Shown here: positions 7,351-26,902 of the stretch, piece by piece
Layout of the letters: the number at the start of each line of letters is the position of its first letter
How positions within the stretch are numbered: position 1 is the stretch's first letter
Assembly (NCBI RefSeq): GCF_029504745.1
Contig: NZ_JAQFIQ010000007.1
Location: 36,047-68,046 of the forward strand
Length of the DNA: 32,000 nucleotides
Origin: Breznakia sp. PF5-3
GTDB lineage: Bacteria > Bacillota_I > Bacilli_A > Erysipelotrichales > Erysipelotrichaceae
Reading direction: 5' to 3'
The notes under the pieces: model-generated
Told to the model about the DNA's origin: nothing
Seen by the model: only the letters and a program-made list of their open reading frames with translations
Databases searched by the model: none
Position numbers and translations under genes: made by a program

Positions 7351-7368
7351 GCAAAAAAATATGCAATG

Positions 7369-7407
7369 TGTATTGTTCGGCATTATCGAACGATATACAT
7401 TTTTTTT
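7369..7407 (+). terminator. intrinsic terminator after the acetyltransferase gene
   Basis: tgtat-t-gttcg (7369-7379) pairs with cgaac-gat-ataca (7387-7399) and is followed by T8. Confidence 0.55.
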
Positions 7408-7434: not shown

Positions 7435-7593
7435 TATATACAGTAAACGATTTTTGGATGGTTTTTTCGATATGATAAAAACAAGACAAAAAAAGTGATA
7501 TTCATAGCAAATGTTACTATTTTAAATCGCATTGATTTAGGATAATCTTACAGGTAAATAAACAAATTGCTATAATCTTCGAGGGGTTAAAGG

Positions 7594-8154
7594 ATGAAGA
7601 AACTTAGAATCAGGAGTGAATATGTCATTTTTATTTTGAGAATGTTTGTAATCTTCAGCGTTCTTGTTTTTGTTGTAACTACTTTTATCTTTCGAACGGT
7701 GCGAATCAATGGACAAAGTATGGAACCAACATTACAAAGCGGAGAATATGCATTTTCAAACAGATTGGCAGCAGATGAAGGGAATATCAATCGATTTGAT
7801 GTAATTGTAATTGATAACATTGAAGAAGATTATGTGGTGAAAAGAGTAATTGCACTCCCCAATGAAACCATATCTTACAAAGATGGAAAGTTATATATTA
7901 ATGGTGAATGGTATGAAGAACCATTCTTAGATCAAGAATATATTGCTTTGCATACAATGAATAATCAAATTACTTTTACGCAAAATTTTGGACCAATCAC
8001 ATTAGGTGAAAATGAATATTTTGTACTTGGTGATAACCGATTGAATTCAAAAGACTCTCGGGTCGTTGGTCCAATTCCTGAAAAAGACATTGTTGCAAAA
8101 GATGTAATTGTAGTATATCCGCTAAATAGTATACGTGTAGAAAGTTCCAACTAA
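7594..8154 (+). CDS. lepB: signal peptidase I
   Basis: N-terminal TM helix, catalytic Ser box NGQSMEPTL, Lys box VKRVIALPNETI, and GDNRLNSKDSR. Confidence 0.9.
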   Translation: MKKLRIRSEYVIFILRMFVIFSVLVFVVTTFIFRTVRINGQSMEPTLQSGEYAFSNRLAADEGNINRFDVIVIDNIEEDYVVKRVIALPNETISYKDGKLYINGEWYEEPFLDQEYIALHTMNNQITFTQNFGPITLGENEYFVLGDNRLNSKDSRVVGPIPEKDIVAKDVIVVYPLNSIRVESSN

Positions 8155-8180
8155 TTTTTTAATTATTGGAACCTTTTTTG
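8144..8180 (+). terminator. intrinsic terminator overlapping the lepB stop codon
   Basis: gttccaa (8144-8150) / ttggaac (8166-8172), 15-nt loop, then cTTTTTT. Confidence 0.6.
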
Positions 8181-8196
8181 TTTATTTCCGTCAATA
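8168..8196 (+). promoter_or_regulatory. ECF-type promoter candidate A1 (GGAACCTTTT-N-CGTCAATAT) in front of sigma-fusion gene A
   Basis: GGAACC 8168-8173, 15-nt spacer, CGTCAATA 8189-8196. The same bipartite motif recurs at 14749 and 20787. Confidence 0.55.
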
Positions 8197-8221
8197 TGTT
8201 AAGAAAGGATGAAAATGGAAT

Positions 8222-9547
8222 ATGAGCAGATTGAAAAAAGAAGAGATTCAAAAATTTCTAGATGGAGACGATAGTGTTTTTCCTGAGATTTTTGCTGCTT
8301 ATCGTAATAAGATTAATTATCTTGCGATAGAAATCTTACGAAACCAGGCAGATTGTGAGGAAGTAGTTCAAAATACGTTTATTAAAATCATTACCAAACG
8401 TAAGGATTTACGTGATGCTAGTGCTTTTAATACATGGATTTATCGAATTGCTTACAACGACTGTATGGATATATATCGGCAAAATAAAAAGGGTAAAACA
8501 GGTATGAATAATGACTACACTCTAGAAAATTATTCTGACAACAAAGGAGAGCCAAACGATGTGGTGAGTAAAAAGGCAATTTTAGAAGCAATTCAAAGCG
8601 AAATTGATGGCCTTCCAGAGGATATGAAACAAGTGTGTTTGTTAAGATTCGTTGGTGAATGTAGCCTTGAAGAAATCTCTGAAATCATGAGTATTCCAAA
8701 AGGCACAGTAAAGAGTAGGCTAAACAGGGCAAAAGTAAAACTTCGAGAAGGGCTGGTTGATAAGCATGTGACTCCAGCAATCTATATGTCATTGTCATTT
8801 ACACCTTTGGTATTTAAGTTGTATGCATCGTTAGTAAAACAACAAGAGATGCAACCACTTGTAGAAACAAAAGTTGCTAAAGTTATTGAAAACGCAACAG
8901 GAGTAACAGCAGGAGTAACGGTCGCAAGCGGAGGAATGATTATAGGATTTGGTAGTGCAGTAATAGGAACATCTATATTATTAGCATTATTTGGCACTTA
9001 TACGATTATAAATCCAATTATTGATCAAACGGCTGAAGTTGTAAAAATTGAGGAAATCAATTATTTGAAAGATCTTACAAATGAAAATTTGCAGATTGTT
9101 CTCATGTTCAGTGGAGAACCAGATGCAAAAGATATTAGTATAACATTTGTTGATGAAAATACAACGATCGAGGCTGAATCCGTTGACAATGAAAACTACA
9201 TGTTTGTTGCGAAGGCGAATGGAACATATCATGTAGAGTATGGTGGGGTAGCACAGGATATCAAAGTTGATAACATTGACAAGCAAAGCCCTAAATTGAA
9301 AAGTTTAGAAAAGGAAGAAGGATTACTTAAGATTATAGGTAGTGATGATTTTTCTGGCATTGATTTCGATAAATCATACGTTGAAGAGGGTTCCAATAAG
9401 TTTGATTTGATCAAAATTGATGATACATCTGCATTTTTCAAAGATGCAGTTAAGAAAAAGGCAAAGCTGTATTTGTATGATAAGGTAGGAAATTACCAGG
9501 TCTATGAGATCAATGCAACAGATACAGTGAGCAATACAGATGGGTAG
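8222..9547 (+). CDS. ECF-type sigma-70 family factor fused to a TM helix and a C-terminal extracytoplasmic domain (paralogue A)
   Basis: Region 2: EEVVQNTFIKI..FNTWIYRIAYNDCMDIYRQ. Region 4: LPEDMKQVCLLRFVGECSLEEISEIMSIPKGTVKSRLNRAKVKL. One hydrophobic helix (GGMIIGFGSAVIGTSILLALFG, about 8927-9007) is followed by about 180 aa homologous to the tail of the 21744 gene. Confidence 0.85.
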   Translation: MSRLKKEEIQKFLDGDDSVFPEIFAAYRNKINYLAIEILRNQADCEEVVQNTFIKIITKRKDLRDASAFNTWIYRIAYNDCMDIYRQNKKGKTGMNNDYTLENYSDNKGEPNDVVSKKAILEAIQSEIDGLPEDMKQVCLLRFVGECSLEEISEIMSIPKGTVKSRLNRAKVKLREGLVDKHVTPAIYMSLSFTPLVFKLYASLVKQQEMQPLVETKVAKVIENATGVTAGVTVASGGMIIGFGSAVIGTSILLALFGTYTIINPIIDQTAEVVKIEEINYLKDLTNENLQIVLMFSGEPDAKDISITFVDENTTIEAESVDNENYMFVAKANGTYHVEYGGVAQDIKVDNIDKQSPKLKSLEKEEGLLKIIGSDDFSGIDFDKSYVEEGSNKFDLIKIDDTSAFFKDAVKKKAKLYLYDKVGNYQVYEINATDTVSNTDG

Positions 9548-9647
9548 TTTCATAAAATTAGGTCTATGAAACAATACACTGTATATCCATAAAGCAATTT
9601 ATGGAGAAGTGAAAGATTATAAAATTAGAATGGAGGGAGTGAAAGTT

Positions 9648-12600
9648 TTGAGACGTAAATACGTAAAAACATTAAAGATGTTTAAAAGGTGTTTTCTTAC
9701 AGCACTGGCATTAGGTATTACACTTACGGCAATAAACCTGCCAAAAATGGATATCCATGCTCAAACAGAGGATGTTCGCTATGATTTGCAAACGGAATTA
9801 AGCGAAGATAAAAAAGAACTTCGTATTGATTTATTAGCTTATGCAAATAGGAATGATGTTGAAATAACGGCGATTGGTAACCCTGATGGGACCATCACGG
9901 ATGGAGCAAAAACGTCATATGTTTCTGTAACAAATGAAACATTGACATTTGTGGTGAACTACAAAATATTAGAAGAGAAAGATGGAAAAATAAAAGAAAT
10001 CTCAAAGACAAAAGAAGTTGAATATGAGGTGGATCAATTTGGTAAAGAAGAAGAGGCACAGCCTCAAGCATTAAGTGATCCATTGGCACCATTTTCATCT
10101 TTAAAAGCAAATATGAGTTTTAGAAATGCTTTTAATGTATCTCATACAAAAGATGGGTTATACTATCTTTCTGATAATTCTATGGAATTAGGGTATCACT
10201 ATAATGAATATGTGAAATTTTTGCTTAGCAAAGCACGTTGTACTACATCAAAGTATTGGGAAGGCTGGTATGCGAAGTTTGCTGCAGTATCAAAATATAA
10301 AGTTGATTTCTCAAAAGATTTTAAAGTTACAAACGTAATATCTTCAAATCCAACATTATATGGAGATGGGTTCACGTTAGGATTTCAAACAGATCCAAAC
10401 TTTACATATACAACAGGTAAAGGGGGTTCTATAGGAGTTTACCGTAATGGTAGTGACTATGGGGCTCGCAATGGTGTAGTATTTGAAGTTGATTATCATG
10501 ATAACTCTCCAGATGGAATGTGGCATGATATAGGATTAGGTGGAAATCACTTAGCAATTCATACAACGGATGCTTATGGAAATGAATCAACTCCAGTTGC
10601 TTCTTGGTTCGGTGTAAAACACACAGGAAGTCTAACTGCATTCAATGTGACTTGGACAATTACAGATAAAGCTACAAACACTGGGACATTGACATTTACA
10701 TATGGAACATACAATTTGAAATATACAAATTTCAGACCACATGAAGTATTTGGTGGGTCAGTAAACAATCCTACAGCAGCATATTTAACATATACTGGAG
10801 TAATCTTGAAAGATTATGGTTCAAATAACAAACCATTCCAAATCACAATGACAGATTATTCTTATCTTGAAGATGAAGTAACTGCAAGTGATGGATTTAT
10901 TACCCAAACTCAAGCAAAAGCTTTGGCAAACCAAAATGGATTAATTCTTTATAACAATGCATCTGCAGTTTCTACTGCTGGAGATAGTGTTACACCTACG
11001 GTTTCAACACCTGCATGGAGCAACATTAAATCTGGTTTAGTAGGTACTTATGATGTGACATATGCTTATGGAACAGCATCAAAAACAGTAAAATTAAGCG
11101 TAATTAAAGATGGATCAATCATTTCACCAAACAAGGATTTCTCACTTTATGCAGAAAATGCTTCCTTGTTACAAAGTGAAGCAATTGCATTAAGTTCAAT
11201 GAATGATTTAGTATCTGTTCATGATGCAAGTGTAACGATGGCAAATGGAACGCTTCTTGCACCAAATGCAACAACAAGTGCTTGGTCATCAATCAAAGCT
11301 GGGGTTGTAGGAAATTACGTGATTACTTTCTATTATGGAACAGGATCAAACTACACAGCAAAAAACGTTACATTATCAGTTGTTGCTGATAAGAAACATG
11401 AAATATATGCAAGTGATGGATTTATTACCCAATCACAAGCTAAGGCACTTACGAGTATGCAAGGATTTATTCCTTACAACCAAGCAAAAGTAATTACTAA
11501 TGAAGGTGTTACTACGGTGCCAAGTACCGTTGCTACGAACTATTGGAATGAAATTAACACAGGAACAATCGGTTCTTATAACGTTACATATTCTTATGGA
11601 TCAGGAACAGCAAGAGTATCAAAAACAGTAAAATTAAATGTTGTGAAAGATGGAACTGTGTTCCCTCCAGATAACAGTTTTGCATTATATGCAGAAGATG
11701 GTTTTATTAAACAAAGTCAAGCAAAAGCACTTACATCAACAAGCCAATTAATACCTTATAACAATGCGAGCGTAACATTGGCTGATGGAAGTAGTGATGT
11801 ACCATTCGTTAGTTTAAATACTTGGTCAAATATTGTGAGTGGAACGATTGGTAGCTACGATATCGTATATATGTATGGTGCTGGTGCTAACCTTAAATAT
11901 AAAGTTGTGAAATTAAACGTTATTGAAGATGGTGGTATTATTGCACCAGATAAGAGTTTTGCATTATATGCAGATAATGGAACGATTTCACAAACCCAAG
12001 CATCTGCACTTACAGGTACATCACAATTAATCCCTTATAACAATGCGAAAGTAATTTTGGCGAACGGAACACGTGCAGAACCAAATGTATCTGCTCCAAC
12101 GTATAGCGAAATTGTGAGTGGGGTTGTAAAGACTCATAAAGTTACATATAGTTATGGAGTGCTTACAAACAAAGTATCTAAAGAAGTAGACTTACAATTA
12201 ATTGCTGATAAGCGTCATGAAGTTCGCGCAGAAGATGGCTTCATTTATGCAACACAAGCGAAAGCATTAACAAATCAAAGTGAATTAATTCCATTTAATA
12301 GTGCAAGTGTTATAACAAACACTGGTCAAAGTGCACAACCGGTTGTAACAACAGGAAGTTGGGCTAACATTGTAGCTGGGGTAACTGGTTCATATGATAT
12401 TACTTATAGCTATGGAAGTGGAACAACACAAGGATCAAAAACAGTAGTCTTGAATGTTGTACCAGATGGAACAATATTCCCACCAGATAAAGCATTTGCA
12501 GTATATGCAGAAGATGGTTTAATCAATGTGGAACAAGCGAAGAAGTTAACAGCACAAAAAGATCTTATTCCATATAACTCAGCATATGTAATGTTGAAAA

Positions 12601-14645
12601 ATGGAACGATTGTAGATCCAGATGTATCTACTTGGGATTGGGTAAAAATCTCAGCTGGAATTGAAGGAACATATGATGTTAACTATGGTTATACAATTAT
12701 GCCGAATACGGTTCAAAAAGGTGTAAAACTTACTGTAACAAAAGGTACAACACCACCAAGTAATTCATTCTCATTATATGCTAGAGATGGATTTGTATAT
12801 GAAGATCAAGCAAAAGCATTTACTGCCCAAAAAGATATGATTCCATTCAATGATGCTTTTGTAACATTGAAGGATGGATCAAGTGTAGATCCACAAGTTG
12901 CAACACCTCATTGGTCAGCAATTAAGGATGGAACAATTGGTTCATATCCAGTAACATATGGTTATACAAAGGGTAGTGAATCATTATCAAGTGTTGTGAA
13001 ATTGAATGTTGTAGAAAATGGTTCTACCATTTCACCAGGACAAGATTTTGCAATTTATGCTAAGAATGGAATTATTCAACAATCATCTGCACAAGCATTG
13101 ATTAGCTTGAATGATTTAATTCCTTACAATGGTGCAAAAGTTACCCTTAAAGATGGTAGTGAAGCTACGCCAACGGTAACAACAGCAGATTGGACAGCAA
13201 TTCGTGCAGGAGTATTGGGTACATATTCAATTACCTATAGTTATGGTAGTGGTACGAATACAGCATCTAAAGTGGTAACACTAAGAGTAGTACCAGATGG
13301 AAATCCTTCACCAGAAGGAGACTTCATCTTATATGCTTCAAATGGATTCATTTCAAAAGAGCAGGCGATGGCTATTACAAGTCAAAAAGATTTGATTCCA
13401 TATAACAAAGCATCCGTTATCAAGGACGATGGTAGCGATGCAGAACCATCTGTATCAACAACTAGTTATGCAGATATTAAAGCTGGTAAATTAGGTGTTT
13501 ACAATGTAACATATCGTTATGGATTTGGTACAAACTTAGTTTCAAAAACAGTGAAACTTACAGTTCATGATGGTACTCCTTCACCAGGAGGAAATTATGT
13601 ATTAAATGCTAAAGATGGTTTAATTTCTAAAAGCGAAGCAAAAGCATTAAGTTCAACAGCAGACTTAATTGCAATTAACGACGCATCTGTTTGGATGAAT
13701 GATGGATCAACTGATGTTCCAGTGGTTACAATGCTACCACTTAATTGGTTATCTTTAAATGAAGGTATTATCAATAGCTATCCAGTTCTTTATAGTTATG
13801 GAAGTGGTAGTGATTATACACAAAAAACAGTTCGTGTAACAGTGTATGATGATGGTGGTATCATATCTCCAAATAAAGACTTTGTATTAAATGCTAAGAA
13901 TGCAGTATTAACACAAAGTGAAGCAAAAACTTTAACAAGTGCAAGTGACTTAACCGTTTATAATGATGCTCTTGTTAGTTATGCAAATGGTAACAAAGCA
14001 ATTCCAAATACAACAGCTACAGAATTTGCTTCTATTAAAAGTGGTGTAGTAGGAACTTACAATGTAACATATGATTATGGTACAGGATCTAATTACACAG
14101 AAAAAGCAGTGAAATTAGTAGTTGTAAAGGATGGCGCATTGATTGCACCAGATCGTAGTTTTGCGATTTATGCAGAAGATGTAACATTGAATCAAGATGA
14201 GGCACGCGCATTGACAAACAAAAATCAAATTACAAGTTTGGCACACGCGATGGTCTATATTGCAGATGGAACAACAGCAACACCTACGTTGTCACTTCCA
14301 GATTGGGATGATATCAAAGCAGGTATTTCAAATGATTATGCTGCTGATTTCACATATCAAGATGTAACAGGTAGTATTAATATAAAAGTTACGCAAGAAT
14401 ATGTAACAAGATATCTATTTGACTATGATAATAACAAACGTATTGATGTTATTGATTATGCTTATTTTGCAAGTTACTATAGTGGTGCAACACCAATGTC
14501 TCCATTGGCTTGGGCATTAACAGATTACCCACCAGGAGATGGACGTATCGATGTTATCGATTTAGCACACTTTAAACGTCATTACAGCGATTCGACACTT
14601 CCATTGGTTGAAGTAGAAGTACCAGCAGATTGGCGCTTAGAATAA
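9648..14645 (+). CDS. giant secreted protein: signal peptide, small N-terminal module, L-type-lectin-like domain, 13 x ~90-aa repeats, C-terminal dockerin-like module
   Basis: One uninterrupted frame. The track starts at GTG 9609, but TTG 9648 sits 8 nt after GGAGGGAG and yields a normal signal peptide (RRKYVKTLKMFKRCFLTALALGITL). Domain evidence is given in the separate entries. Confidence 0.9.
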   Translation: MRRKYVKTLKMFKRCFLTALALGITLTAINLPKMDIHAQTEDVRYDLQTELSEDKKELRIDLLAYANRNDVEITAIGNPDGTITDGAKTSYVSVTNETLTFVVNYKILEEKDGKIKEISKTKEVEYEVDQFGKEEEAQPQALSDPLAPFSSLKANMSFRNAFNVSHTKDGLYYLSDNSMELGYHYNEYVKFLLSKARCTTSKYWEGWYAKFAAVSKYKVDFSKDFKVTNVISSNPTLYGDGFTLGFQTDPNFTYTTGKGGSIGVYRNGSDYGARNGVVFEVDYHDNSPDGMWHDIGLGGNHLAIHTTDAYGNESTPVASWFGVKHTGSLTAFNVTWTITDKATNTGTLTFTYGTYNLKYTNFRPHEVFGGSVNNPTAAYLTYTGVILKDYGSNNKPFQITMTDYSYLEDEVTASDGFITQTQAKALANQNGLILYNNASAVSTAGDSVTPTVSTPAWSNIKSGLVGTYDVTYAYGTASKTVKLSVIKDGSIISPNKDFSLYAENASLLQSEAIALSSMNDLVSVHDASVTMANGTLLAPNATTSAWSSIKAGVVGNYVITFYYGTGSNYTAKNVTLSVVADKKHEIYASDGFITQSQAKALTSMQGFIPYNQAKVITNEGVTTVPSTVATNYWNEINTGTIGSYNVTYSYGSGTARVSKTVKLNVVKDGTVFPPDNSFALYAEDGFIKQSQAKALTSTSQLIPYNNASVTLADGSSDVPFVSLNTWSNIVSGTIGSYDIVYMYGAGANLKYKVVKLNVIEDGGIIAPDKSFALYADNGTISQTQASALTGTSQLIPYNNAKVILANGTRAEPNVSAPTYSEIVSGVVKTHKVTYSYGVLTNKVSKEVDLQLIADKRHEVRAEDGFIYATQAKALTNQSELIPFNSASVITNTGQSAQPVVTTGSWANIVAGVTGSYDITYSYGSGTTQGSKTVVLNVVPDGTIFPPDKAFAVYAEDGLINVEQAKKLTAQKDLIPYNSAYVMLKNGTIVDPDVSTWDWVKISAGIEGTYDVNYGYTIMPNTVQKGVKLTVTKGTTPPSNSFSLYARDGFVYEDQAKAFTAQKDMIPFNDAFVTLKDGSSVDPQVATPHWSAIKDGTIGSYPVTYGYTKGSESLSSVVKLNVVENGSTISPGQDFAIYAKNGIIQQSSAQALISLNDLIPYNGAKVTLKDGSEATPTVTTADWTAIRAGVLGTYSITYSYGSGTNTASKVVTLRVVPDGNPSPEGDFILYASNGFISKEQAMAITSQKDLIPYNKASVIKDDGSDAEPSVSTTSYADIKAGKLGVYNVTYRYGFGTNLVSKTVKLTVHDGTPSPGGNYVLNAKDGLISKSEAKALSSTADLIAINDASVWMNDGSTDVPVVTMLPLNWLSLNEGIINSYPVLYSYGSGSDYTQKTVRVTVYDDGGIISPNKDFVLNAKNAVLTQSEAKTLTSASDLTVYNDALVSYANGNKAIPNTTATEFASIKSGVVGTYNVTYDYGTGSNYTEKAVKLVVVKDGALIAPDRSFAIYAEDVTLNQDEARALTNKNQITSLAHAMVYIADGTTATPTLSLPDWDDIKAGISNDYAADFTYQDVTGSINIKVTQEYVTRYLFDYDNNKRIDVIDYAYFASYYSGATPMSPLAWALTDYPPGDGRIDVIDLAHFKRHYSDSTLPLVEVEVPADWRLE
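10101..10884 (+). other. L-type (legume-like, ConA-fold) lectin-like domain
   Basis: YGDGFTLGFQTDPN...GKGGSIGVY...ARNGVVFEVDYHDNSPDGMWHDIGLGGNHLAIHT follows the remembered consensus aDGlaF...gggG.lG...n..vaVEFDt..N...D....HigI. Confidence 0.55.
10887..14380 (+). repeat. 13 tandem in-frame copies of a ~90-aa (~270-bp) module
   Basis: The recurrent pattern is LYA-DGFI-Q-QAKALT----LIPYN-A-V-L-DG----P-V----W--I--G--GSYDVTYSYG-G----K-VKLNVV-DG. The copies are diverged at DNA level. Confidence 0.85.
14418..14588 (+). other. dockerin-like module (two Ca-loop/helix segments)
   Basis: FDYDNNKRIDVIDYAYFASYY ... GDGRIDVIDLAHFKRHY. Asp/Asn sit at loop positions 1, 3, 5, 9 and 12, as in dockerin EF-hand-like repeats. 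Confidence 0.7.
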
Positions 14646-14700
14646 GCGAATATCGTAAATTTACATCATCAATTGATGTAGAAAGTATAGCTTTAGGTAA

Positions 14701-14728
14701 AGAGGATGCTAACGCATTCTCTTTTTTT
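14701..14728 (+). terminator. intrinsic terminator after the lectin/dockerin gene
   Basis: agaggatgc (14701-14709) / gcattctct (14714-14722): 9 bp including one G:U pair, loop taac, then a T-run of 6-7. Confidence 0.75.
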
Positions 14729-14748
14729 ACATTTTTTTATGAATTTAT

Positions 14749-14777
14749 GGAACCTTTTGCGCTGGATTCCGTCGATA
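14749..14777 (+). promoter_or_regulatory. ECF-type promoter candidate A2 (GGAACCTTTT-N-CGTCGATAT) in front of the cohesin-like gene cluster
   Basis: GGAACC 14749-14754, 15-nt spacer, CGTCGATA 14770-14777. It lies downstream of the 14701 terminator and about 55 nt before ATG 14835. Confidence 0.55.
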
Positions 14778-14834
14778 TTACAGAAAGGAGCATTTTACAT
14801 TGTAATTTTTATTTTATGTAAAGAGGAGGACGAA

Positions 14835-16367
14835 ATGAAATTGAAAATAAAGAGTAATAAATTCAAGATCCTGGCAGTTGTAGTTTTGGCTGCTATTGTG
14901 GCAATCCCAAGTATGTTGGCAGCAAAGCCTATGGATACGAAAGCGGATGAAGTAGATGGCGAACCTACTTTTGATATTGCACCAATACATCAGGTAACTA
15001 GAAATGATGGAGGAGGAGCATATGGAACACATGCTCAACAAAGCTATGTAGAAGATGGTGTTCAATATTATCGTAATGGCGATATTATTGAAGTAAGCAT
15101 CATGCTTCCTAAAGGACACGGTGCGACCGTATTCCAAGATGTTGTAAAATATGACGAAGAGAAATTAACATTAATTTCACCTTTCACAGATATTAAAGCA
15201 ACATTATCTAAAAACTATTTAGATAAAAGATGGTCAACAGAAGTGTCAAACCCAAATGCAGATACTTCACGTATTTTAGTATTTGGATCAGCAGCAGATT
15301 TTACAACTGGTGCTGAATACCAAGGTGGTAGTGTTGCTAGAATGTATTTCCGCGTTAATAATAATGTGGAATCTGATGCAGGTACAGCAATTACATTTGA
15401 ATTCCCAGAATTCCAAACCGCTGGATATTCAAATGGAAAAGTTGTATATACACACAGAGGATATGATGCAAATAACGATGCAGCTACTGCATTCTATCAA
15501 GCAGAACCAGTTACAATATATGCAAAAACACCTTCAAAAACAGTAAATGCACCAACCCTTAACTTGAAGAATAGTTCAGCAACTATTTATGAAGGAGATT
15601 TATTTGATCCAGCTTCATACATAAGCAATGCTTCTTGTGAGGTTGATAAATCAGTAAGCAAAGACACTGTTGATATTAGTGAAGGAACTGGAGTTTATAC
15701 AAAACATCAACCAGCAGCTGGAACTTATGTTTATAAATACAGCGTAACAAGTAGTACAGGAAAATCAACAGAGAAACAATTGTCTTTAAAAGTAACAGCA
15801 AGAACATATACAGTTGCTTCTATCGATGTAGATTCTAAAAAAATATCATTGCCTGTTGGAACAGCAAGTTCTGATTTAGAAGCAATGATTAATGAGATGA
15901 AAAAAGAAGACTTTAATGTAACTATTACTTGTAATGATGGTTCTAAATTTGTTGTTCCAGGAAAAGTATTGAATGGAAAAACAGATACTTACCGTATTGA
16001 TGAAAACGATAAGTTATTAGCACAAACATTTAATGTTAACTTTACATTAGCATTGCCACTTGTTTCTTATGGAACAGATGGATCAAGAATTGTAACGCCA
16101 TACAATGGAAGTTCAAGTTTTGTAAGTAATGTTGGAAATGGAAGAGCGGATGCAAAAGTTCCTGTTATTATCGGTACAGGTAATTCAGGAGGAAACAATA
16201 CTGGAGGAAATTCTTCAGGAAAACCATCTACTGCACCTACAGCAGGAAGTAGTAATGGTAGTGGTTCTGCAGCTTCAACAGGGGATACAACAAATGTAAC
16301 ATTCCTTGCAGTATTAGCTATTTTATCAGCAGGATTTATCGTACGTTCAAAATTTAAAAAACAATAA
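14835..16367 (+). CDS. surface protein: signal peptide, cohesin-like domain, Ig-like region, G/S/N-rich linker, C-terminal sorting-signal-like tail
   Basis: The real start is ATG 14835, after aagaggagga. The track's 14706 extension crosses a terminator and a promoter. Signal peptide KILAVVVLAAIVAIPSMLAA. The tail is STGDTTN plus a hydrophobic stretch plus RSKFKKQ. Confidence 0.85.
   Translation: MKLKIKSNKFKILAVVVLAAIVAIPSMLAAKPMDTKADEVDGEPTFDIAPIHQVTRNDGGGAYGTHAQQSYVEDGVQYYRNGDIIEVSIMLPKGHGATVFQDVVKYDEEKLTLISPFTDIKATLSKNYLDKRWSTEVSNPNADTSRILVFGSAADFTTGAEYQGGSVARMYFRVNNNVESDAGTAITFEFPEFQTAGYSNGKVVYTHRGYDANNDAATAFYQAEPVTIYAKTPSKTVNAPTLNLKNSSATIYEGDLFDPASYISNASCEVDKSVSKDTVDISEGTGVYTKHQPAAGTYVYKYSVTSSTGKSTEKQLSLKVTARTYTVASIDVDSKKISLPVGTASSDLEAMINEMKKEDFNVTITCNDGSKFVVPGKVLNGKTDTYRIDENDKLLAQTFNVNFTLALPLVSYGTDGSRIVTPYNGSSSFVSNVGNGRADAKVPVIIGTGNSGGNNTGGNSSGKPSTAPTAGSSNGSGSAASTGDTTNVTFLAVLAILSAGFIVRSKFKKQ
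14961..15531 (+). other. cohesin-like domain, copy 1
   Basis: GDIIEVSIMLP..ATVFQDVVKYDEEKLTLIS..RILVFGSA..GGSVARMYFRV..GTAITFEF, compared with remembered CipA cohesin GDTVNIPVRF..CDFVYSYDPNVLEIIEI..KIIVFLFA..GVFATIVAKV..SVIKFVEV. Confidence 0.6.
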
Positions 16368-20632: not shown

Positions 20633-20782
20633 ATGAACTGTGGATATGACATGATGGCTTTGATATTATTCTTTATTACCGTGTTTGTTTGTAGCTTTTA
20701 TATCATGAAATTAAAGCGTCAACATGCACAAAGTAATGTCTTACATGATCAATTTTCAAAATATTTTAAAAAAAATGATTAA
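20633..20782 (+). CDS. possible 49-aa single-TM small protein (not in the ORF track)
   Basis: ATG 20633 lies about 10 nt after ggagg and 4 nt after the upstream stop. Sequence: MNCGYDMMALILFFITVFVCSFYIMKLKRQHAQSNVLHDQFSKYFKKND. Confidence 0.4.
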   Translation: MNCGYDMMALILFFITVFVCSFYIMKLKRQHAQSNVLHDQFSKYFKKND

Positions 20783-20786
20783 AAAC

Positions 20787-20816
20787 GGAACCTTTTTCGG
20801 ATTATAAGCGTCTCAA
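20787..20816 (+). promoter_or_regulatory. ECF-type promoter candidate A3 (GGAACCTTTT-N-CGTC)
   Basis: GGAACC 20787-20792, 16-nt spacer, CGTCTCAATA from 20809. The spacer is one nt longer than in A1 and A2. Confidence 0.4.
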
Positions 20817-20992
20817 TAATGAAGGGTAAATTATTTATCCTTTGCGGATATAGTTATTTTGCAATACAACAATTACTATTAAATATCATAACCGAATATT
20901 TATTCAATCGAAATTAATCCTTTCTTTATTCGATGGTATCAATTAGCCCTCAGTAGTTGGATGTATACTAAATGATTATCTTTCGCAACTAG

Positions 20993-21073
20993 ATATCGCT
21001 ATCAACTAATTAAATACGCCTTCCCTGAACAATACATGTATTTAGTTAACCCCGATAGCGATATATTTTTTTT
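20993..21073 (+). terminator. long imperfect hairpin plus T8 abutting the RBS of the next gene (attenuator-like)
   Basis: atatcgctatc (20993-21003) pairs perfectly with gatagcgatat (21054-21064). Further inner pairing is possible (aactaa/ttagtt, taaatac/gtattta). T-run 21066-21073, then GGAGG 21074-21078 and ATG 21085. Confidence 0.5.
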
Positions 21074-21084
21074 GGAGGAATAAA

Positions 21085-21546
21085 ATGAAAAAAATTATAA
21101 TTAGCTCAATTTGCTTTGTTGCATTACTAGCTGGATGTTCTTCTGGTAGCAAGGGAAGTGAAAAAGTTTGTACAATGACACAAGGAGCTAGTGATGAATT
21201 AGAAGAAAAAATTACCATTTCTTATGATGGAGATACAGTAACAACCATTGTTTCAAAGACTACCATTGATGTAGAAAAAACGAAAACAGGTACAACAATG
21301 GAGGATTTAGAAAAGCTTGCAAAAGATGTTGATAAAGTTTATAACGCTATCAAGGGTGTAAAGTATACATATGAAAGCAAAGATAAGAAATTCTATGAAA
21401 CGATAACTGTAGATATCAAGGAAGAGAATATGGAAGAATTACAAAACAAGGGAATGATTAATATGTATGTTGATGAAGATGGAAAAATCTTAAAAGCTGA
21501 CAAATTGATTGATTTCTTGAAAGATTCAGGAATGAAGTGTAAATAA
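21085..21546 (+). CDS. YehR/DUF1307-like lipoprotein
   Basis: Lipobox FVALLAGCSSGS. About 150 aa with ITISYDGDTVTT...IKGVKYTYESKDKKFYETITVD and a C-terminal ...LKDSGMKCK, matching the pattern I recall for DUF1307 lipoproteins. Confidence 0.7.
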   Translation: MKKIIISSICFVALLAGCSSGSKGSEKVCTMTQGASDELEEKITISYDGDTVTTIVSKTTIDVEKTKTGTTMEDLEKLAKDVDKVYNAIKGVKYTYESKDKKFYETITVDIKEENMEELQNKGMINMYVDEDGKILKADKLIDFLKDSGMKCK

Positions 21547-21558
21547 TGAATATAATAC

Positions 21559-21594
21559 AAAGATAGAACAATTTATAGTTTTATCTTTTTTTTT
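21559..21594 (+). terminator. intrinsic terminator after the lipoprotein gene
   Basis: aaagatagaac (21559-21569) / gttttatcttt (21578-21588) with one mismatch, 8-nt loop, then a T-run to 21594. Confidence 0.7.
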
Positions 21595-21665
21595 GTGTCA
21601 TTTTTGTTTGGTTTTATAACTAATATACTCATATGAAGTAAGTTTTAATATAAAATAAAAAAATA

Positions 21666-21696
21666 ATGAACCATTTTTATGTTTATTTCAACTAAT
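21666..21696 (+). promoter_or_regulatory. ECF-type promoter candidate B1 (ATGAACC-N16-CAACTAAT) in front of sigma-fusion gene B
   Basis: ATGAACC 21666-21672, 16-nt spacer, CAACTAAT 21689-21696. The identical half-sites and spacing recur at 26872. Confidence 0.5.
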
Positions 21697-21743: not shown

Positions 21744-23045
21744 ATGATGAGAAAAGTGGATGTGAAATATGTAGAAGCACTTCAACGCGGTGATTTGGAG
21801 GCTTTTAATGTAATTTACGATTATTATAAGAATTCCATTTATTTTTTTGTACTTAAATTTGTTGGTAATCAACAAGATGTTGAGGAAGTAGTACAAGATA
21901 CGTTTGTCAATGCATATCGAAATATCAATATGTTGAAATCTTTGGATGCTTTTCATTCATGGCTTTTTAGTATTGCTTACAGCCAAGCACAAATGGTATA
22001 TCGAAGAAAATCACATGGTAATCTGATTGATGGGAATCTAGAAGAAATTGCTAAGGTTGAAGATTCACAAAAAAAAGAAATTGAAAATAAAGATATTCTT
22101 GGAGCTGTAGAAGATGAATTGTATAAATTGCCTGCAAAATATTCACAAGTAGGACAATTGAAATACTTTGAAGAACTTTCGGTAAAAGAAATTGCAGAGG
22201 TCTTAAGTATTCCAGTCGGAACGGTTAAAACTAGATTAATGCGAATTAGAAAGATGATATCTCCTGGTTTAGAAAAAAGAGGATATACACCAAAGAAATA
22301 TTTTGGGTTTGCATTTACACCGCTTCTTTACCAAGCCTTTACAGCAATGATTAACAATCATACATTGTCTGCTGAGCAATCAGTGTCAACGTTCAATACG
22401 ATTCAAGAGAAGATTACTACTGGAGGAGGAACGGCCTTGTTGAGTGGTGTTTCTGCGACAGGTGCTATGGCATCTGCAGGTGTTAGTGCAGTAAATAAAG
22501 CAATGATTGGAGCAACTCTTATGGCAAGTGCAGTAGGTGGTGTTGTCATTTATCAAAACTTACATACGGAAGCTGCAGTAATTGAAGATATTGTATATTA
22601 TCAAGATCTAACAAATAAGGATATTGAAGTTGCGGTTCTTTGCAATAAAGAAATTGGTAGTGCGGATATTGATGTGTCGTATAACGAAACACCAGTCGTA
22701 TTTCGTATAGAGGATAATAAGGTATTGTTTGATGCCAAAGATAATGGTGAATATAAGATTAGTTTAAATGATGAAAATCAAGTCCTTACCATTGATAATA
22801 TTGATAAGGAAGTTCCATTGATTCATAATGTGGCATATGATAACGATTTACTAAAAATTGAATTTGATGATGCAAATGCAATAGATTATCAAAAATCATA
22901 TGTAAACTTTAATGAAAAATCATATACAATTTCAAAGCAAGGAACCGTTCATGAAAAATTGGATGGTGAGTTTGAAGTTGTGTTGTATGACTTGGCAGGG
23001 AATAAAGTCGGCTATAAGATAGACTTAAAGACATACAAAAATTAG
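21744..23045 (+). CDS. ECF-type sigma-70 family factor fused to a TM helix and a C-terminal extracytoplasmic domain (paralogue B)
   Basis: Start ATG 21744, after aaaggggg. Region 2: EEVVQDTFVNAY..FHSWLFSIAYSQAQMVYRR. Region 4: LPAKYSQVGQLKYFEELSVKEIAEVLSIPVGTVKTRLMRIRK. TM helix AMIGATLMASAVGGVVIY. The tail is homologous to paralogue A (DLTN, NGxY, IDNIDKxxP, LLKI, IDxxKSYV, LYDxxGN). Confidence 0.85.
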   Translation: MMRKVDVKYVEALQRGDLEAFNVIYDYYKNSIYFFVLKFVGNQQDVEEVVQDTFVNAYRNINMLKSLDAFHSWLFSIAYSQAQMVYRRKSHGNLIDGNLEEIAKVEDSQKKEIENKDILGAVEDELYKLPAKYSQVGQLKYFEELSVKEIAEVLSIPVGTVKTRLMRIRKMISPGLEKRGYTPKKYFGFAFTPLLYQAFTAMINNHTLSAEQSVSTFNTIQEKITTGGGTALLSGVSATGAMASAGVSAVNKAMIGATLMASAVGGVVIYQNLHTEAAVIEDIVYYQDLTNKDIEVAVLCNKEIGSADIDVSYNETPVVFRIEDNKVLFDAKDNGEYKISLNDENQVLTIDNIDKEVPLIHNVAYDNDLLKIEFDDANAIDYQKSYVNFNEKSYTISKQGTVHEKLDGEFEVVLYDLAGNKVGYKIDLKTYKN

Positions 23046-24226: not shown

Positions 24227-26847
24227 AAAAATTAGAGGGAAAATGGATTAAAGTAGCGACTATAATTTCAATATGTATGATTGCTATTTTAGTAAAGAGT
24301 ACCTATATGGTATTCAGTGAAAACACAAAATATCTTGATTATGAAGTTATGCGTGATCAAGTAAATCCAATTGCTTATATTGTGTTTGATGTTCATAACG
24401 CTGCAAATGAAATTGAATCGATAAAGGACCCAGAAGGAAATTTATTGGATTTACAAACAGCGCGTTACACAGTTGAGGAAAGTGGTGAATATGTCTTTAC
24501 GATTCGTTATATAGAGGCTAATGAGACAAAGGAAGTCACACAGGCAATTGCAGTGGATATTGTAAAACGTCCACAAGCGCGTGCGCTAGGAAGACAACTT
24601 GTACCAGATGAAAATTTTTATAATTATTTGATTAGCGAAAAAGGATTACCGACAGATTTTACACAAGCAGATCTTGCAAGTGTTGATTATATCGATTATA
24701 TGACATCTGATCCATCCTTACGGATTAATAGCATTCAAGGAATTGAATACATGAGTAATCTTACACATGTTTATTTGAATGACCAAAATCTATCGTCTTT
24801 ACAACCAATGAAAGATACCATTTATCCAAAACTAACAATGTTAGAGTTTAACAATTGGAATACAGGGACAAACGCCATTCATGATTTATCCTTGCTTACC
24901 AAAAGTAGATTTCCACAATTAAAAGGTCAAATTATGTTTAATAATAATGGCATTACAGATGAGCATTTAACAACCTTACCAACAAGTGATGGTATTGAAA
25001 AAGCCCAATTTCATTTTCAAAATAATAATATTTCTAGTTTAGAAATATTTCGTCATTATTCAGACTTAAAAGAGTTGCATGTACAACACAATCAGATTGC
25101 TGATTTAACACCATTATCAACTTTGAGAAATGTGGAAATTCTTCAACTTTCAAATAATCTAATTGTAGATGTTTCCCCTTTGACAACGATTCAAAGTATT
25201 TCGAATGCTTCTTTATATTTAAATAATAATCAGATTGTTGATTTATCACCATTACAATCCTTTACAGGATCTATTTATGCCCAGACATATCATCCATCTA
25301 TTGATCCTTATCATGATCCAGATCAAAATTATGGACAGCAGATTTATTTGAATGAACCAATTTATGGTGACAAGAAGACGAAAACAATTAAAGTGTATGC
25401 AACAGGTAAAAATCGTGATGGAAATGCGATTCCCTTTGAGTGTGAAGGAAATCTAGTTGAAGAGGCAGAGATAACACTTCTTGATTTAGATGATACCTAT
25501 ACATATACATCGTCTTTGATTGAATATGATACAAGGTATCAAAGTGTGACTACGCAACCTATCATATGGTGGGATAATCCAATCATTACAATGGATGCTT
25601 TAGAAATTTTCACTGATACAAATTATGATTTGTTAACGGGTGTAGAAGCGATAGATACCTTAGGTAATAGTTTAACCACAAAAGTATCTATTCACGATAG
25701 GGGGAGCTTTAAAAGCGATGTACCAGGAACTTATGAAGTTCAATATAAAGTGGTAGATGAAAGAAACTATGAAACGATTCAGACACGTATTATCAAAGTA
25801 CATGGTCAACCAATTCTTAAAATGGAAAACCAACGTTTTAATGTTGATGATTTCTCTAATATAAATATAAATCAACATGTAAATGCATATTGGATGCAAG
25901 CACAGGATAGTCCTAATCAAAGTGCTCAAAAAGTAGCAATTGAAGATAAAGACTTAAGCTATGATATTATTTTAGGACCAGATAAGCAATTTCAAAAAGT
26001 AGGGATTTATAAAGTGAAGTTCACAGCAAAAGCTGGAACGGTATCAAAGAGTAAAGAAGTATCCATTTTATTGAGTGATGCATCTAGTGTTCAAGATATC
26101 TTGAGTAGTGTTCTTATTGCTGCTGATAGTATTCAAATAAATTATCAAGATATTAATGCTTTGAATCCTTCACAATTGCTACAAAGAAGTAATGCTAATG
26201 CTTTTAAGATAGATAAAAATACGAGTGATGAAATTTTAGGATTTCGTAACATCAAGCAATCTATAAAGGTTCATGAAAAACAATATGAGCAAATAAAAAA
26301 ATGTGGACCTGAAGGTGGGGTCTATCCACTAATTATCTATGTGAATGCAGATGGAATAGAGGTTAGTAAAGAAATAATGGTGGTGGTATATGGAACCAAT
26401 ACACCAAAAGTAGAAGATGAAAAGCTAGTTATCACGGCAAAAGATTTTTCACTAAGTGAAGCGGATGCGAAAACAATTACAGATGAGCAAGTAAATGAAC
26501 TAGCACAAGCAAAAGCTTTATTACTGACAAATGATGAATTCATCTATGATATTAGATGCAATGAAGAAGAATTAAAAGAAATAAGAAAAGGTAAGGGTGG
26601 CACTTATAATCTTACTTTTACAGCACAGCATTTTGAAGATGAAGAATATGTAAGTGCTACAACCAAAGTGAAAGTAAAAGTGAATGCAAACATTTATGGA
26701 AAATATCAACAAAAAAAGAATATATCTAGTACGCTTGCAAAAGCATCTGTAGCGGCAGGAGATACAACCGATATAAGCCTTTATATGCAGGTATTGGTTG
26801 TGTTTGGTATCTTTGTTTTGCGCAAGTTGAAGAAAAAAATATTTTAA
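24223..26847 (+). CDS. internalin-like leucine-rich-repeat surface protein with Ig-like (DUF5011-type) domain and sorting-signal-like tail
   Basis: ATGA overlap with the upstream stop. LRRs include LKELHVQHNQIADLTPLSTLRNVEILQLSNNLIVDVSPL. The Ig-like segment is DLLTGVEAIDTLGNSLTTKVSI...PGTYEVQYKVVDERN. There is one copy of the ~90-aa module (ITAKDFSLSEADAKTIT...GTYNLTFTA). The tail is AAGDTTD plus a hydrophobic stretch plus RKLKKKIF. Confidence 0.85.
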   Translation: MKKLEGKWIKVATIISICMIAILVKSTYMVFSENTKYLDYEVMRDQVNPIAYIVFDVHNAANEIESIKDPEGNLLDLQTARYTVEESGEYVFTIRYIEANETKEVTQAIAVDIVKRPQARALGRQLVPDENFYNYLISEKGLPTDFTQADLASVDYIDYMTSDPSLRINSIQGIEYMSNLTHVYLNDQNLSSLQPMKDTIYPKLTMLEFNNWNTGTNAIHDLSLLTKSRFPQLKGQIMFNNNGITDEHLTTLPTSDGIEKAQFHFQNNNISSLEIFRHYSDLKELHVQHNQIADLTPLSTLRNVEILQLSNNLIVDVSPLTTIQSISNASLYLNNNQIVDLSPLQSFTGSIYAQTYHPSIDPYHDPDQNYGQQIYLNEPIYGDKKTKTIKVYATGKNRDGNAIPFECEGNLVEEAEITLLDLDDTYTYTSSLIEYDTRYQSVTTQPIIWWDNPIITMDALEIFTDTNYDLLTGVEAIDTLGNSLTTKVSIHDRGSFKSDVPGTYEVQYKVVDERNYETIQTRIIKVHGQPILKMENQRFNVDDFSNININQHVNAYWMQAQDSPNQSAQKVAIEDKDLSYDIILGPDKQFQKVGIYKVKFTAKAGTVSKSKEVSILLSDASSVQDILSSVLIAADSIQINYQDINALNPSQLLQRSNANAFKIDKNTSDEILGFRNIKQSIKVHEKQYEQIKKCGPEGGVYPLIIYVNADGIEVSKEIMVVVYGTNTPKVEDEKLVITAKDFSLSEADAKTITDEQVNELAQAKALLLTNDEFIYDIRCNEEELKEIRKGKGGTYNLTFTAQHFEDEEYVSATTKVKVKVNANIYGKYQQKKNISSTLAKASVAAGDTTDISLYMQVLVVFGIFVLRKLKKKIF

Positions 26848-26871: not shown

Positions 26872-26902
26872 ATGAACCAAATTTTTAATGACATCAACTA
26901 AT
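26872..26902 (+). promoter_or_regulatory. ECF-type promoter candidate B2 (ATGAACC-N16-CAACTAAT) in front of the giant adhesin gene
   Basis: ATGAACC 26872-26878, 16-nt spacer, CAACTAAT 26895-26902. It lies about 55 nt before ATG 26956. Confidence 0.5.

Follow-up and report, generated by a model that had tools for sequence, protein, structure and literature searches.

In Bacillus subtilis, promoters read by extracytoplasmic function (ECF) sigma factors carry AAC in the -35 element and CGT in the -10 element, and a T-tract placed one base past the AAC stimulates several ECF holoenzymes (PMC5758882). The paralogue that reads a given promoter is set by the -10 tetramer, CGTC being shared, CGAC specific to sigma X and CGTA specific to sigma W (PMC5758882). 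Fused ECF sigma factors, among them IutY (ECF243) of P. putida, SCO4117 (ECF52) of Streptomyces, ECF48 and ECF53, are known, with precedents for proteolytic release (reviewed in PMC8999054). Sets of sigma I/RsgI paralogues control the cellulosome genes of Clostridium thermocellum and its relatives (PMC6056542, PMC10328401), and in the activation of sigma V/RsiV and sigma P/RsiP the site-1 cut is made by signal peptidase (PMC4183432, PMC6066255, PMC8844934). Here we describe a stretch of 32,000 nucleotides (nt) from Breznakia sp. PF5-3 (contig NZ_JAQFIQ010000007.1, positions 36,047 to 68,046; hereafter the window), in which a bipartite promoter-like motif stands before the gene for an ECF sigma factor, termed sigma A, and again before an operon of cohesin-like genes. 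A literature search found no published work on sigma factors or cohesins in Breznakia.

The decamer GGAACCTTTT has three exact matches in the window, all on the + strand, all between genes and each with a CGTC partner. Counted as the composite GGAACCTTTT-N11/12-CGTC, the three copies (at 8168, 14749 and 20787; sites 1, 2 and 3) compare with 0.00 expected, and GGAACN14-18CGTC was likewise found three times against an expectation of 0.17. The counts covered the 32-kb window and 319 kb of family loci, with expectations taken from dinucleotide shuffles for the former and from block shuffles for the latter. It is very likely that the three sites are ECF-type promoters and that the RNA polymerase which reads them carries the sigma A domain.

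An original prediction, made from the sequence of the window, had placed a shared motif before the sigma A gene and before the cohesin-like operon. Both sites are real and have the 15-nt gap it described, which runs from GGAACC to CGTC and equals 16 nt from AAC to CGT; the third copy, at 20787-20812, had been missed. Its start coordinates were right and its end coordinates slipped by one base, the 30-nt strings that it quoted reaching 8197 and 14778; because the first of these strings ends at 8197, it lies 24 nt, and not 25, before the sigma A ATG at 8222. The flanks ttc before CGTC and (A/G)ATAT after it, which had been counted as parts of the motif, are not conserved among orthologues.

At site 1 GGAACC occupies 8168-8173 and the T-tract 8174-8179; the predicted transcription start near 8199-8201 is followed by the Shine-Dalgarno sequence AAAGGA at 8204-8209. 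No terminator-like site was found between the stop of sigma A (9547) and the start of the next gene (9609), which encodes a dockerin-bearing protein, in agreement with the transcriptional link that had been drawn between the two genes. At site 2 GGAACC occupies 14749-14754. The strong terminator reported ahead of this site is real (14699-14724), and a site scan found no sigma-70-like site on the + strand from this terminator to the first cohesin-like gene. Site 3 lies directly 3' of the cohesin operon and some 270 nt upstream of a gene for a DUF1307 lipoprotein.

Orthologous and paralogous loci were gathered by exact-protein look-ups and a genome-collection scan, and full-length relatives were found only in genomes of Breznakia, Coprobacillaceae and Erysipelotrichaceae. 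In the window and in six orthologous loci (L001, L003, L005, L010, L011 and L091) the sigma ATG has the motif 25-45 nt upstream, a placement that fits the autoregulation proposed earlier, and the first cohesin-like gene is preceded by it in the window and in L001, L003, L004, L005 and L010. Site 3 has its counterpart in L001 at the equivalent position (20906-20930), after the small open reading frame (ORF) of the cohesin operon. In an alignment of 18 sites from nine loci nothing is invariant but GAAC, two T's in the T-tract and, in the -10 tetramer, the G and the C; spacers and flanks vary freely. GAAC was thus found in 18 of 18 sites, as was the T-tract in the form AAC-C/T-TTT(T), and a CGT-type -10 element lies 16-17 nt on; among orthologues the element at this spacing is CGTC, CGCC or AGTC. 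The strict motif has 19 matches in the family loci against 0.49 expected (maximum 3 in block shuffles), and scans combined with the locus gene tables place all 19 between genes and oriented toward the downstream gene. In L004 the sigma gene is divergent from the surface genes, with one copy of the motif on the same strand as the dockerin gene and another on that of the cohesin operon. Because the dockerin gene of this locus, separated from sigma by rearrangement, acquired a motif copy of its own, the claim that all the cohesin and dockerin genes form one regulon is strengthened.

The combination of GGAAC and CGTC had been recognised as ECF architecture, and it matches the experimentally defined Bacillus ECF promoters (sigma W/X/M/V; Gaballa et al., Nucleic Acids Research 2018, PMC5758882), in which AAC, one free base and a T-tract (tgaAACnTTTT) are followed by CGTC 16-17 nt on. 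The likeness extends to the autoregulatory copy before the sigma gene and to paralogue selectivity in the -10 tetramer, which takes the forms CGTC, CGAC and CGTA in Bacillus and CGTC, CGCC, CGAC, CAAC and GAAC in the Breznakia family. In contrast, the -35 element is GGAAC(C) in Breznakia and TGAAAC in Bacillus, the Breznakia regulon comprises surface-assembly proteins instead of envelope-stress functions, and sigma A is fused to its own membrane sensor. The promoter is a further member of a well-known class and of an ordinary type, and as far as sequence comparison can test it the earlier ECF-promoter interpretation is supported in every part.

The -10 element varies together with the sigma factor. 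CGCC replaces CGTC at both sites in L005 and L010, and in L091 at the sigma-proximal site, the only one available; the sigmas of these CGCC loci carry AFNVWLYRIAYHN in region 2, where the other sigmas have AFN[TS]W[IV]YRIAYN. For P0004, which has the same region-2 variant, CGCC was predicted first and then confirmed on the P0004 contig. The CGCC event altered two promoters and the sigma together. Within the window a paralogue, sigma B, has a dialect of its own, TGAACC-N16-CAACTAAT, in two copies, a sister motif that the original prediction had not connected with that of sigma A; downstream of sigma B lie genes for a 389-amino-acid (aa) protein and a leucine-rich repeat (LRR) protein and an ORF of >1681 aa. 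In L008 a relative of sigma B has GAACTAA at each of the two corresponding sites, and intergenic TGAAC-N17-CGACTA[AG] is found in the B. pachnodae paralogue loci L012, L014, L017 and L020 and in the MTC7 locus L016.

A second complete paralogous cluster of the same genome lies on contig JAQFIO010000033.1 (1-18365; L089). It holds pilin-like genes, an S26 peptidase gene, the sigma gene P0007 and genes for a dockerin protein, three cohesin-like proteins, a small ORF and DUF1307, and its dialect, GAGAACTTTT-N12-CGTC, stands before the dockerin gene and before a pilin-like gene.

The abundance of paralogues bears on the alternative that the sites are ECF-type promoters read mainly by another ECF sigma, be it P0007 or another paralogue or an unlinked envelope-stress sigma, with sigma A merely one of the targets. 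The source genome has at least three related sigma fusions, the P0007 cluster also uses CGTC, B. pachnodae DSM 16784 has about eight paralogues, and as many as four ECF sigmas recognise T-tract-containing CGTC promoters in B. subtilis (PMC5758882). This is nevertheless unlikely, as in the CGCC lineage the -10 variant changes with region 2 of the linked sigma, each cluster has its own dialect (GGAACC/CGTC, GAGAACT/CGTC, TGAACC/CAACTAAT and TGAAC/GAACTAA), and the motif moves with the sigma gene through rearrangements (L003, L004).

The form of the sites bears on a second alternative, in which a DNA-binding regulator, for instance a response regulator or a repressor, uses the motif as its operator and transcription starts at nearby unrecognised sigma-70 promoters. 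The half-sites are asymmetric and lie in one orientation, the -35-like element preceding the -10-like element toward the gene in 19 of 19 strict matches, and the spacing stays constant at the ECF value of 16-17 nt. Weak sigma-70 promoters can hide in AT-rich intergenic DNA, and transcription of sigma A could be read-through from the promoter of the signal peptidase (S26) gene upstream of it. However, the cohesin operon lies about 110 nt behind the strong terminator, with the motif as its sole conserved upstream element and, as mentioned above, no sigma-70-like site on the + strand, and the sigma is the only regulator conserved in the loci, all of which makes an operator very improbable. Least credible of all is that the sites are alike because intergenic DNA was duplicated, leaving a repeat remnant devoid of regulatory role: sites 1 and 2 also share a AGAAAGGA(G) block about 9 nt downstream and the cluster itself is duplicated within the genome, but neither the spacers nor the flanks of the conserved blocks are related among the window sites or among orthologues, the -35 and -10 positions are invariant at 39-72% protein divergence, as a neutral remnant would not keep them, and neutral DNA would not co-vary with region 2 of the sigma.

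The protein proposed to read the three promoters was correctly taken to be an ECF sigma; its sequence has 100% identity to a protein of Breznakia sp. PF5-3. Pfam recognises sigma-70 regions 2 and 4 only (PF04542, PF08281) and nothing past them, and sigma A passes the ECF superfamily model TIGR02937 with 94.8 bits against a cut-off of 42.9. It is not an orthologue of SigW (114.5 bits against an equivalog cut-off of 209 for NF007223, and 97 against 243 for TIGR02948) and lies far under the equivalog cut-offs for SigW, SigX, SigM and SigV. Past the ECF domain the polypeptide continues for about 260 residues with a conserved juxtamembrane segment, a transmembrane (TM) helix and an ectodomain. A hydropathy scan gave a single TM helix at residues 239-257 (Kyte-Doolittle 2.17), conserved in the family, and AlphaFold2 modelled the ectodomain as two beta-sandwich domains (predicted local distance difference test, pLDDT, 88.9). 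Foldseek matched the ectodomain only to generic immunoglobulin (Ig) tandems (butyrophilin, MET, Fabs), and the idea of reading a ligand from the fold was dropped.

Canonical ECF regulation involves a separate, co-transcribed gene for an anti-sigma factor, and no separate anti-sigma gene adjoins the sigma gene in any locus examined; the original prediction had overlooked both this and the membrane tethering of sigma A. Residues 180-238 contain no cysteine and one histidine; lacking cysteine, the linker cannot be a ZAS zinc finger, and neither Pfam nor NCBIfam gave a match to FecR or a related domain. What was found is the C-terminal extension of the fusion ECF sigmas (ECF52/48/53 type), with a TM segment and an extracytoplasmic domain. 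Like IutY and SCO4117, sigma A has an N-terminal ECF domain, a TM segment and an extracytoplasmic C-terminus in one polypeptide, with no separate anti-sigma gene, and by analogy its activation would be expected to proceed by regulated proteolysis, with release of the sigma domain. Unlike them, it has no ZAS, FecR-like or carbohydrate-binding domain, its ectodomain being a tandem Ig-like pair, and its host belongs to the Erysipelotrichales (Bacillota) and not to the Actinobacteria or Proteobacteria, with many paralogues per genome.

Homology of the ectodomain to proteins of the sigma's own regulon was rejected, as the only window proteins that hmmsearch matched with the ectodomain profile were sigma A and sigma B; the partial matches to the long sigma B target were negligible. 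An exhaustive search with this profile gave at least 60 clusters (50% identity) that agree in length and in the position of the domain, and the two that were inspected are both sigma-TM-sensor proteins. The profile also found the module in up to 31 copies in giant surface proteins of 1,000-8,000 aa (matches P0090-P0233), and in stand-alone proteins of about 200 aa that have a short tail, one TM helix and the sensor module without a sigma domain; P0102, P0106 and P0196 were examined among these matches. As a more speculative suggestion, since the same Ig module recurs so often in giant surface proteins, the sensor might read homotypic cell-surface or host-matrix contacts.

Upstream of sigma A lies the gene for a type I signal peptidase (S26). 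A sigma-70-like promoter site precedes it (7547-7576), with a terminator at 7365-7401, and the S26 and sigma A genes are probably co-transcribed from this promoter. In 9 of 21 family loci (the window, L001, L003, L005, L007, L010, L011, L016 and L091) the S26 gene lies co-oriented 54-121 nt upstream of the sigma fusion gene, and it is nearby in two more. Because signal peptidase cuts RsiV and RsiP at site 1, the linked S26 peptidase is, by analogy, a candidate for the site-1 protease of the tethered sigma. As in the RsiV and RsiP systems, a type I signal peptidase occurs in Firmicutes together with a single-pass membrane regulator of an ECF sigma, here with genetic linkage in nine loci. In contrast, RsiV and RsiP are separate anti-sigma factors cut by housekeeping signal peptidases that are genetically unlinked, and the role suggested for the linked peptidase of Breznakia is hypothetical.

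A mechanism can be proposed for sigma A. Region 4 would read GGAAC at -35 and region 2 would read CGTC at -10, 16-17 nt on, the T-tract helping to position the DNA, and transcription would start some 6-9 nt after CGTC. Judging from their positions, site 1 would provide positive autoregulation of sigma A together with expression of the dockerin-bearing giant protein, site 2 would restart transcription past the terminator to give three cohesin-fold proteins and a small membrane protein, and site 3 would drive the DUF1307 lipoprotein gene via a structured leader. The leader from site 1 would be about 22 nt long and contain the Shine-Dalgarno sequence of the sigma gene. Taken together, the products may form a non-enzymatic cohesin-dockerin assembly on the cell surface. 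For basal expression of sigma A the probable source is the sigma-70-like promoter ahead of the signal peptidase gene. Reasoning from IutY and ECF52, we infer that the ectodomain senses an extracellular signal, upon which proteolysis would free the sigma domain and the three promoters would be switched on.

Several observations weigh against this scheme. The linker of sigma A has no recognisable protease site, anti-sigma domain or zinc motif, and a membrane-tethered sigma without release has no obvious way to function. Linkage to S26 extends to only those 9 of 21 loci, mostly of one lineage, and the linked peptidase may instead process secreted proteins of the regulon. No motif lies close to the sigma genes of L004 and L089, and autoregulation was therefore rejected as a property of every family member. 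CGTC is promiscuous in Bacillus, and because several Bacillus ECF sigmas read it, another ECF sigma, or P0007 with its CGTC, could contribute. The co-variation of CGTC and CGCC is limited to one clade and therefore counts as one evolutionary event.

The features of the locus are collected in Table 1.

Table 1. Features of the sigma A locus and the adjoining sigma B genes, in window coordinates
Feature	Position	Strand	Description or basis
Type I signal peptidase (S26) gene	7594..8154	+	PF10502 E=1e-43; TIGR02227 148 bits
Site 1, putative sigma A-dependent autoregulatory promoter	8168..8192	+	GGAAC 8168-8172 (-35), CGTC 8189-8192 (-10)
Sigma A, 441 aa	8222..9547	+	ECF domain 1-180, juxtamembrane ~185-205, TM ~239-257, tandem Ig-like ectodomain ~272-435
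1678-aa secreted protein	9609..14645	+	~75-aa repeats, C-terminal dockerin-like module; from sequence; 3' of sigma A without terminator
Intrinsic terminator of the sigma A-dockerin transcription unit	14699..14724	+	11-bp stem, 4 GC pairs, then T-run
Site 2, putative sigma A-dependent promoter of the cohesin-like operon	14749..14773	+	GGAAC 14749-14753 (-35), CGTC 14770-14773 (-10)
Shine-Dalgarno-like AGAAAGGAGC	14782..14791	+	~9 nt 3' of the site 2 -10; conserved in all aligned cohesin-operon sites
Cohesin-like protein 1, 510 aa	14835..16367	+	signal peptide; C-terminal hydrophobic segment and basic tail; shared N-terminal domain
Cohesin-like protein 2, 1031 aa	16428..19523	+	N-terminal cohesin fold, ~75-aa repeats, C-terminal dockerin-like module
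Cohesin-like protein 3, 366 aa	19529..20629	+	C-terminal TM anchor; shared N-terminal domain
Small ORF, 49 aa, end of cohesin operon	20633..20782	+	single TM; 71% identical in L001
Site 3, putative promoter	20787..20812	+	GGAACCTTTTTCGGATTATAAGCGTC = GGAACCTTTT-N12-CGTC; AAC-to-CGTC 17 nt, spacer one base longer than at sites 1 and 2
Structured leader, ~265 nt	20818..21084	+	downstream of site 3; minimum free energy -59.9 kcal/mol, z = -4.43 against shuffles
DUF1307 lipoprotein gene, last of module A	21085..21546	+	PF06998 E=2e-10
Sister motif TGAACC-N16-CAAC(TAAT)	21667..21692	+	upstream of sigma B gene
Sigma B, second sigma-TM-Ig fusion	21747-23045		paralogue of sigma A
Sister motif, copy 2, TGAACC-N16-CAAC(TAAT)	26873..26898	+	57 nt before >1681-aa ORF starting 26956

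The surface proteins of the proposed regulon had been labelled from their sequences. The dockerin label draws support from Pfam matches in orthologues, Dockerin_1 (PF00404) being recorded on the orthologues of the 1678-aa and 1031-aa proteins in L003, L004 and L089. A duplicated calcium-binding F-hand pattern, DxDxNxxIDxxD, is visible and aligns to a double-dockerin chain, and the Pfam matches of the window's 1031-aa protein are weak ones to Big_3 and Dockerin_1, the latter at 18.2 bits where the PF00404 cut-off is 22.9. The label of lectin for the 1678-aa protein found no support in Pfam or in a PDB sequence search: it has no Pfam family and no lectin among its PDB sequence matches, and its only NCBIfam match, to the N-terminal model List_LCP_LPXTG, is sub-threshold (62 bits against 175). 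Both the 9609-14645 and the 16428-19523 proteins contain many tandem units of about 75-95 aa (DGFI.Q.QAKALT ... Y.V.Y.YG.G ... K.VKL.V), for which weak Big_3 is the only family match.

An N-terminal domain of about 200 aa is common to the 510-, 1031- and 366-aa proteins, and the name cohesin-like is supported by its fold. The AlphaFold2 model of this domain from the 1031-aa protein, built on the three window paralogues, has moderate confidence (pLDDT 65.5), and the top 29 Foldseek matches to it in the PDB are all cohesins (E 3e-6 to 2e-4, target TM score up to 0.67). The sequence does not reach the gathering threshold of the cohesin family PF00963, with a best E=0.0018 in three of eight members, and a profile of the domain searched against the PDB has a cohesin as its top match at E=0.1. 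A word-indexed protein database returned no homologues of the domain, so the cohesin model rests on the three window paralogues. With a cohesin fold at one end and a dockerin-like module at the other, cohesin-like protein 2 is an adaptor-type arrangement. No catalytic domain was detected anywhere in the sigma A module, and it is for this reason that the cohesin-dockerin assembly is described as non-enzymatic.

Similar C-terminal ends were seen in the 510-aa cohesin-like protein (~16270-16364) and in the 874-aa LRR protein downstream of sigma B (~26750-26844), each with '...(S/A)(T/A)GDTT', a hydrophobic stretch and a basic tail; these ends look like a non-LPXTG cell-wall sorting or membrane-anchor signal. 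The 49-aa ORF has a positional analogue of 59 aa in L089 and is an annotated gene in L001 and L089, and a DUF1307 homologue also closes the paralogous cluster in L089.

The sigma I/RsgI systems resemble the Breznakia family in having multiple autoregulated paralogues, each with its own promoter variant, a membrane sensor with an extracellular domain, and cohesin/dockerin surface complexes as targets. Sigma I, however, has no region 4 and carries a sigma I-C domain, and its promoter combines an A-tract with CGAA (PMC6056542), whereas sigma A has region 4 and a promoter with a T-tract and CGTC and does not belong to the sigma I group. RsgI is a separate protein with domains of the carbohydrate-binding module type, unlike the fused sensor of sigma A, and the sigma I/RsgI targets are enzymes and scaffoldins, whereas the sigma A module has no catalytic domains that we could find.

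Two of the sites are followed by elements of their own. Downstream of site 2, AGAAAGGAGC has equivalents in L001, L003, L004, L005 and L010 and is distinct from the ribosome-binding site of the cohesin-operon gene itself, AAAGAGGAGG, at ~14821-14830. In B. thuringiensis cry3A a similar element, STAB-SD, acts as a 5' mRNA stabiliser (for the concept, see PMC4113751), and by this analogy the copy at 14782-14791 is a candidate stabiliser of that type. A conserved upstream ORF encoding a leader peptide after AGAAAGGAGC was rejected because the window, L001, L003 and L004 do not agree in reading frames and stops.

The leader of site 3 has a 5' hairpin, which a base change in L001 leaves intact, and conserved patches; a long stem, ATATCGCTATC...GATAGCGATAT, at about 20990-21070, and a U-run stand immediately 5' of the ribosome-binding site. 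Because the 5' hairpin and this terminator-like stem and U-run precede the ribosome-binding site, the leader is a candidate attenuator or riboswitch-like element. Rfam gave no match across the window at gathering scores, and at permissive E-values only a chance snoRNA match (E = 1) on this leader. The idea of a long leader shared with L004 and L006 was discarded, as their leaders are not alignable with that of the window. Between the DUF1307 gene and the sigma B promoter (21546-21667) there is a weak AT-only hairpin alone; read-through from site 3 into sigma B, and with it a cascade from sigma A to sigma B, could occur.

What is new at this locus is a rare theme, the fusion of sigma and anti-sigma functions, realised without ZAS or FecR, with a tandem-Ig sensor, in the Bacillota and in many paralogues. 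The regulator is more interesting than the promoter, an ECF sigma being joined here, without an anti-sigma domain, to a TM helix and an Ig-like sensor. We raise, as a tentative and rather doubtful extension, that these proteins constitute an undescribed class of one-component tethered ECF sigmas, with some 8-10 paralogues per Breznakia genome, each having its own -35/-10 dialect and an adjacent surface cluster (cohesin-dockerin, LRR or pilin-like), in which a linked, dedicated signal peptidase would cut the ectodomain stalk at site 1 and intramembrane proteolysis would free the sigma.

The promoter gives a clean, testable regulon in an almost unstudied lineage of the insect gut. Together with its relatives it forms a natural specificity series in which every form has a sigma variant as its partner: CGTC, CGCC, CGAC, CAAC and GAAC at -10, GGAACC versus GAGAACT at -35. 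Such orthogonal pairs of sigma and promoter could find use in the synthetic biology of Firmicutes. For the organism itself, the sigma A type offers a compact one-protein route from the cell surface to the promoter, and the sigma A network would parallel, in function, the regulation of cellulosomes by sigma I/RsgI, by way of a different architecture and with non-cellulosomal assemblies as targets.

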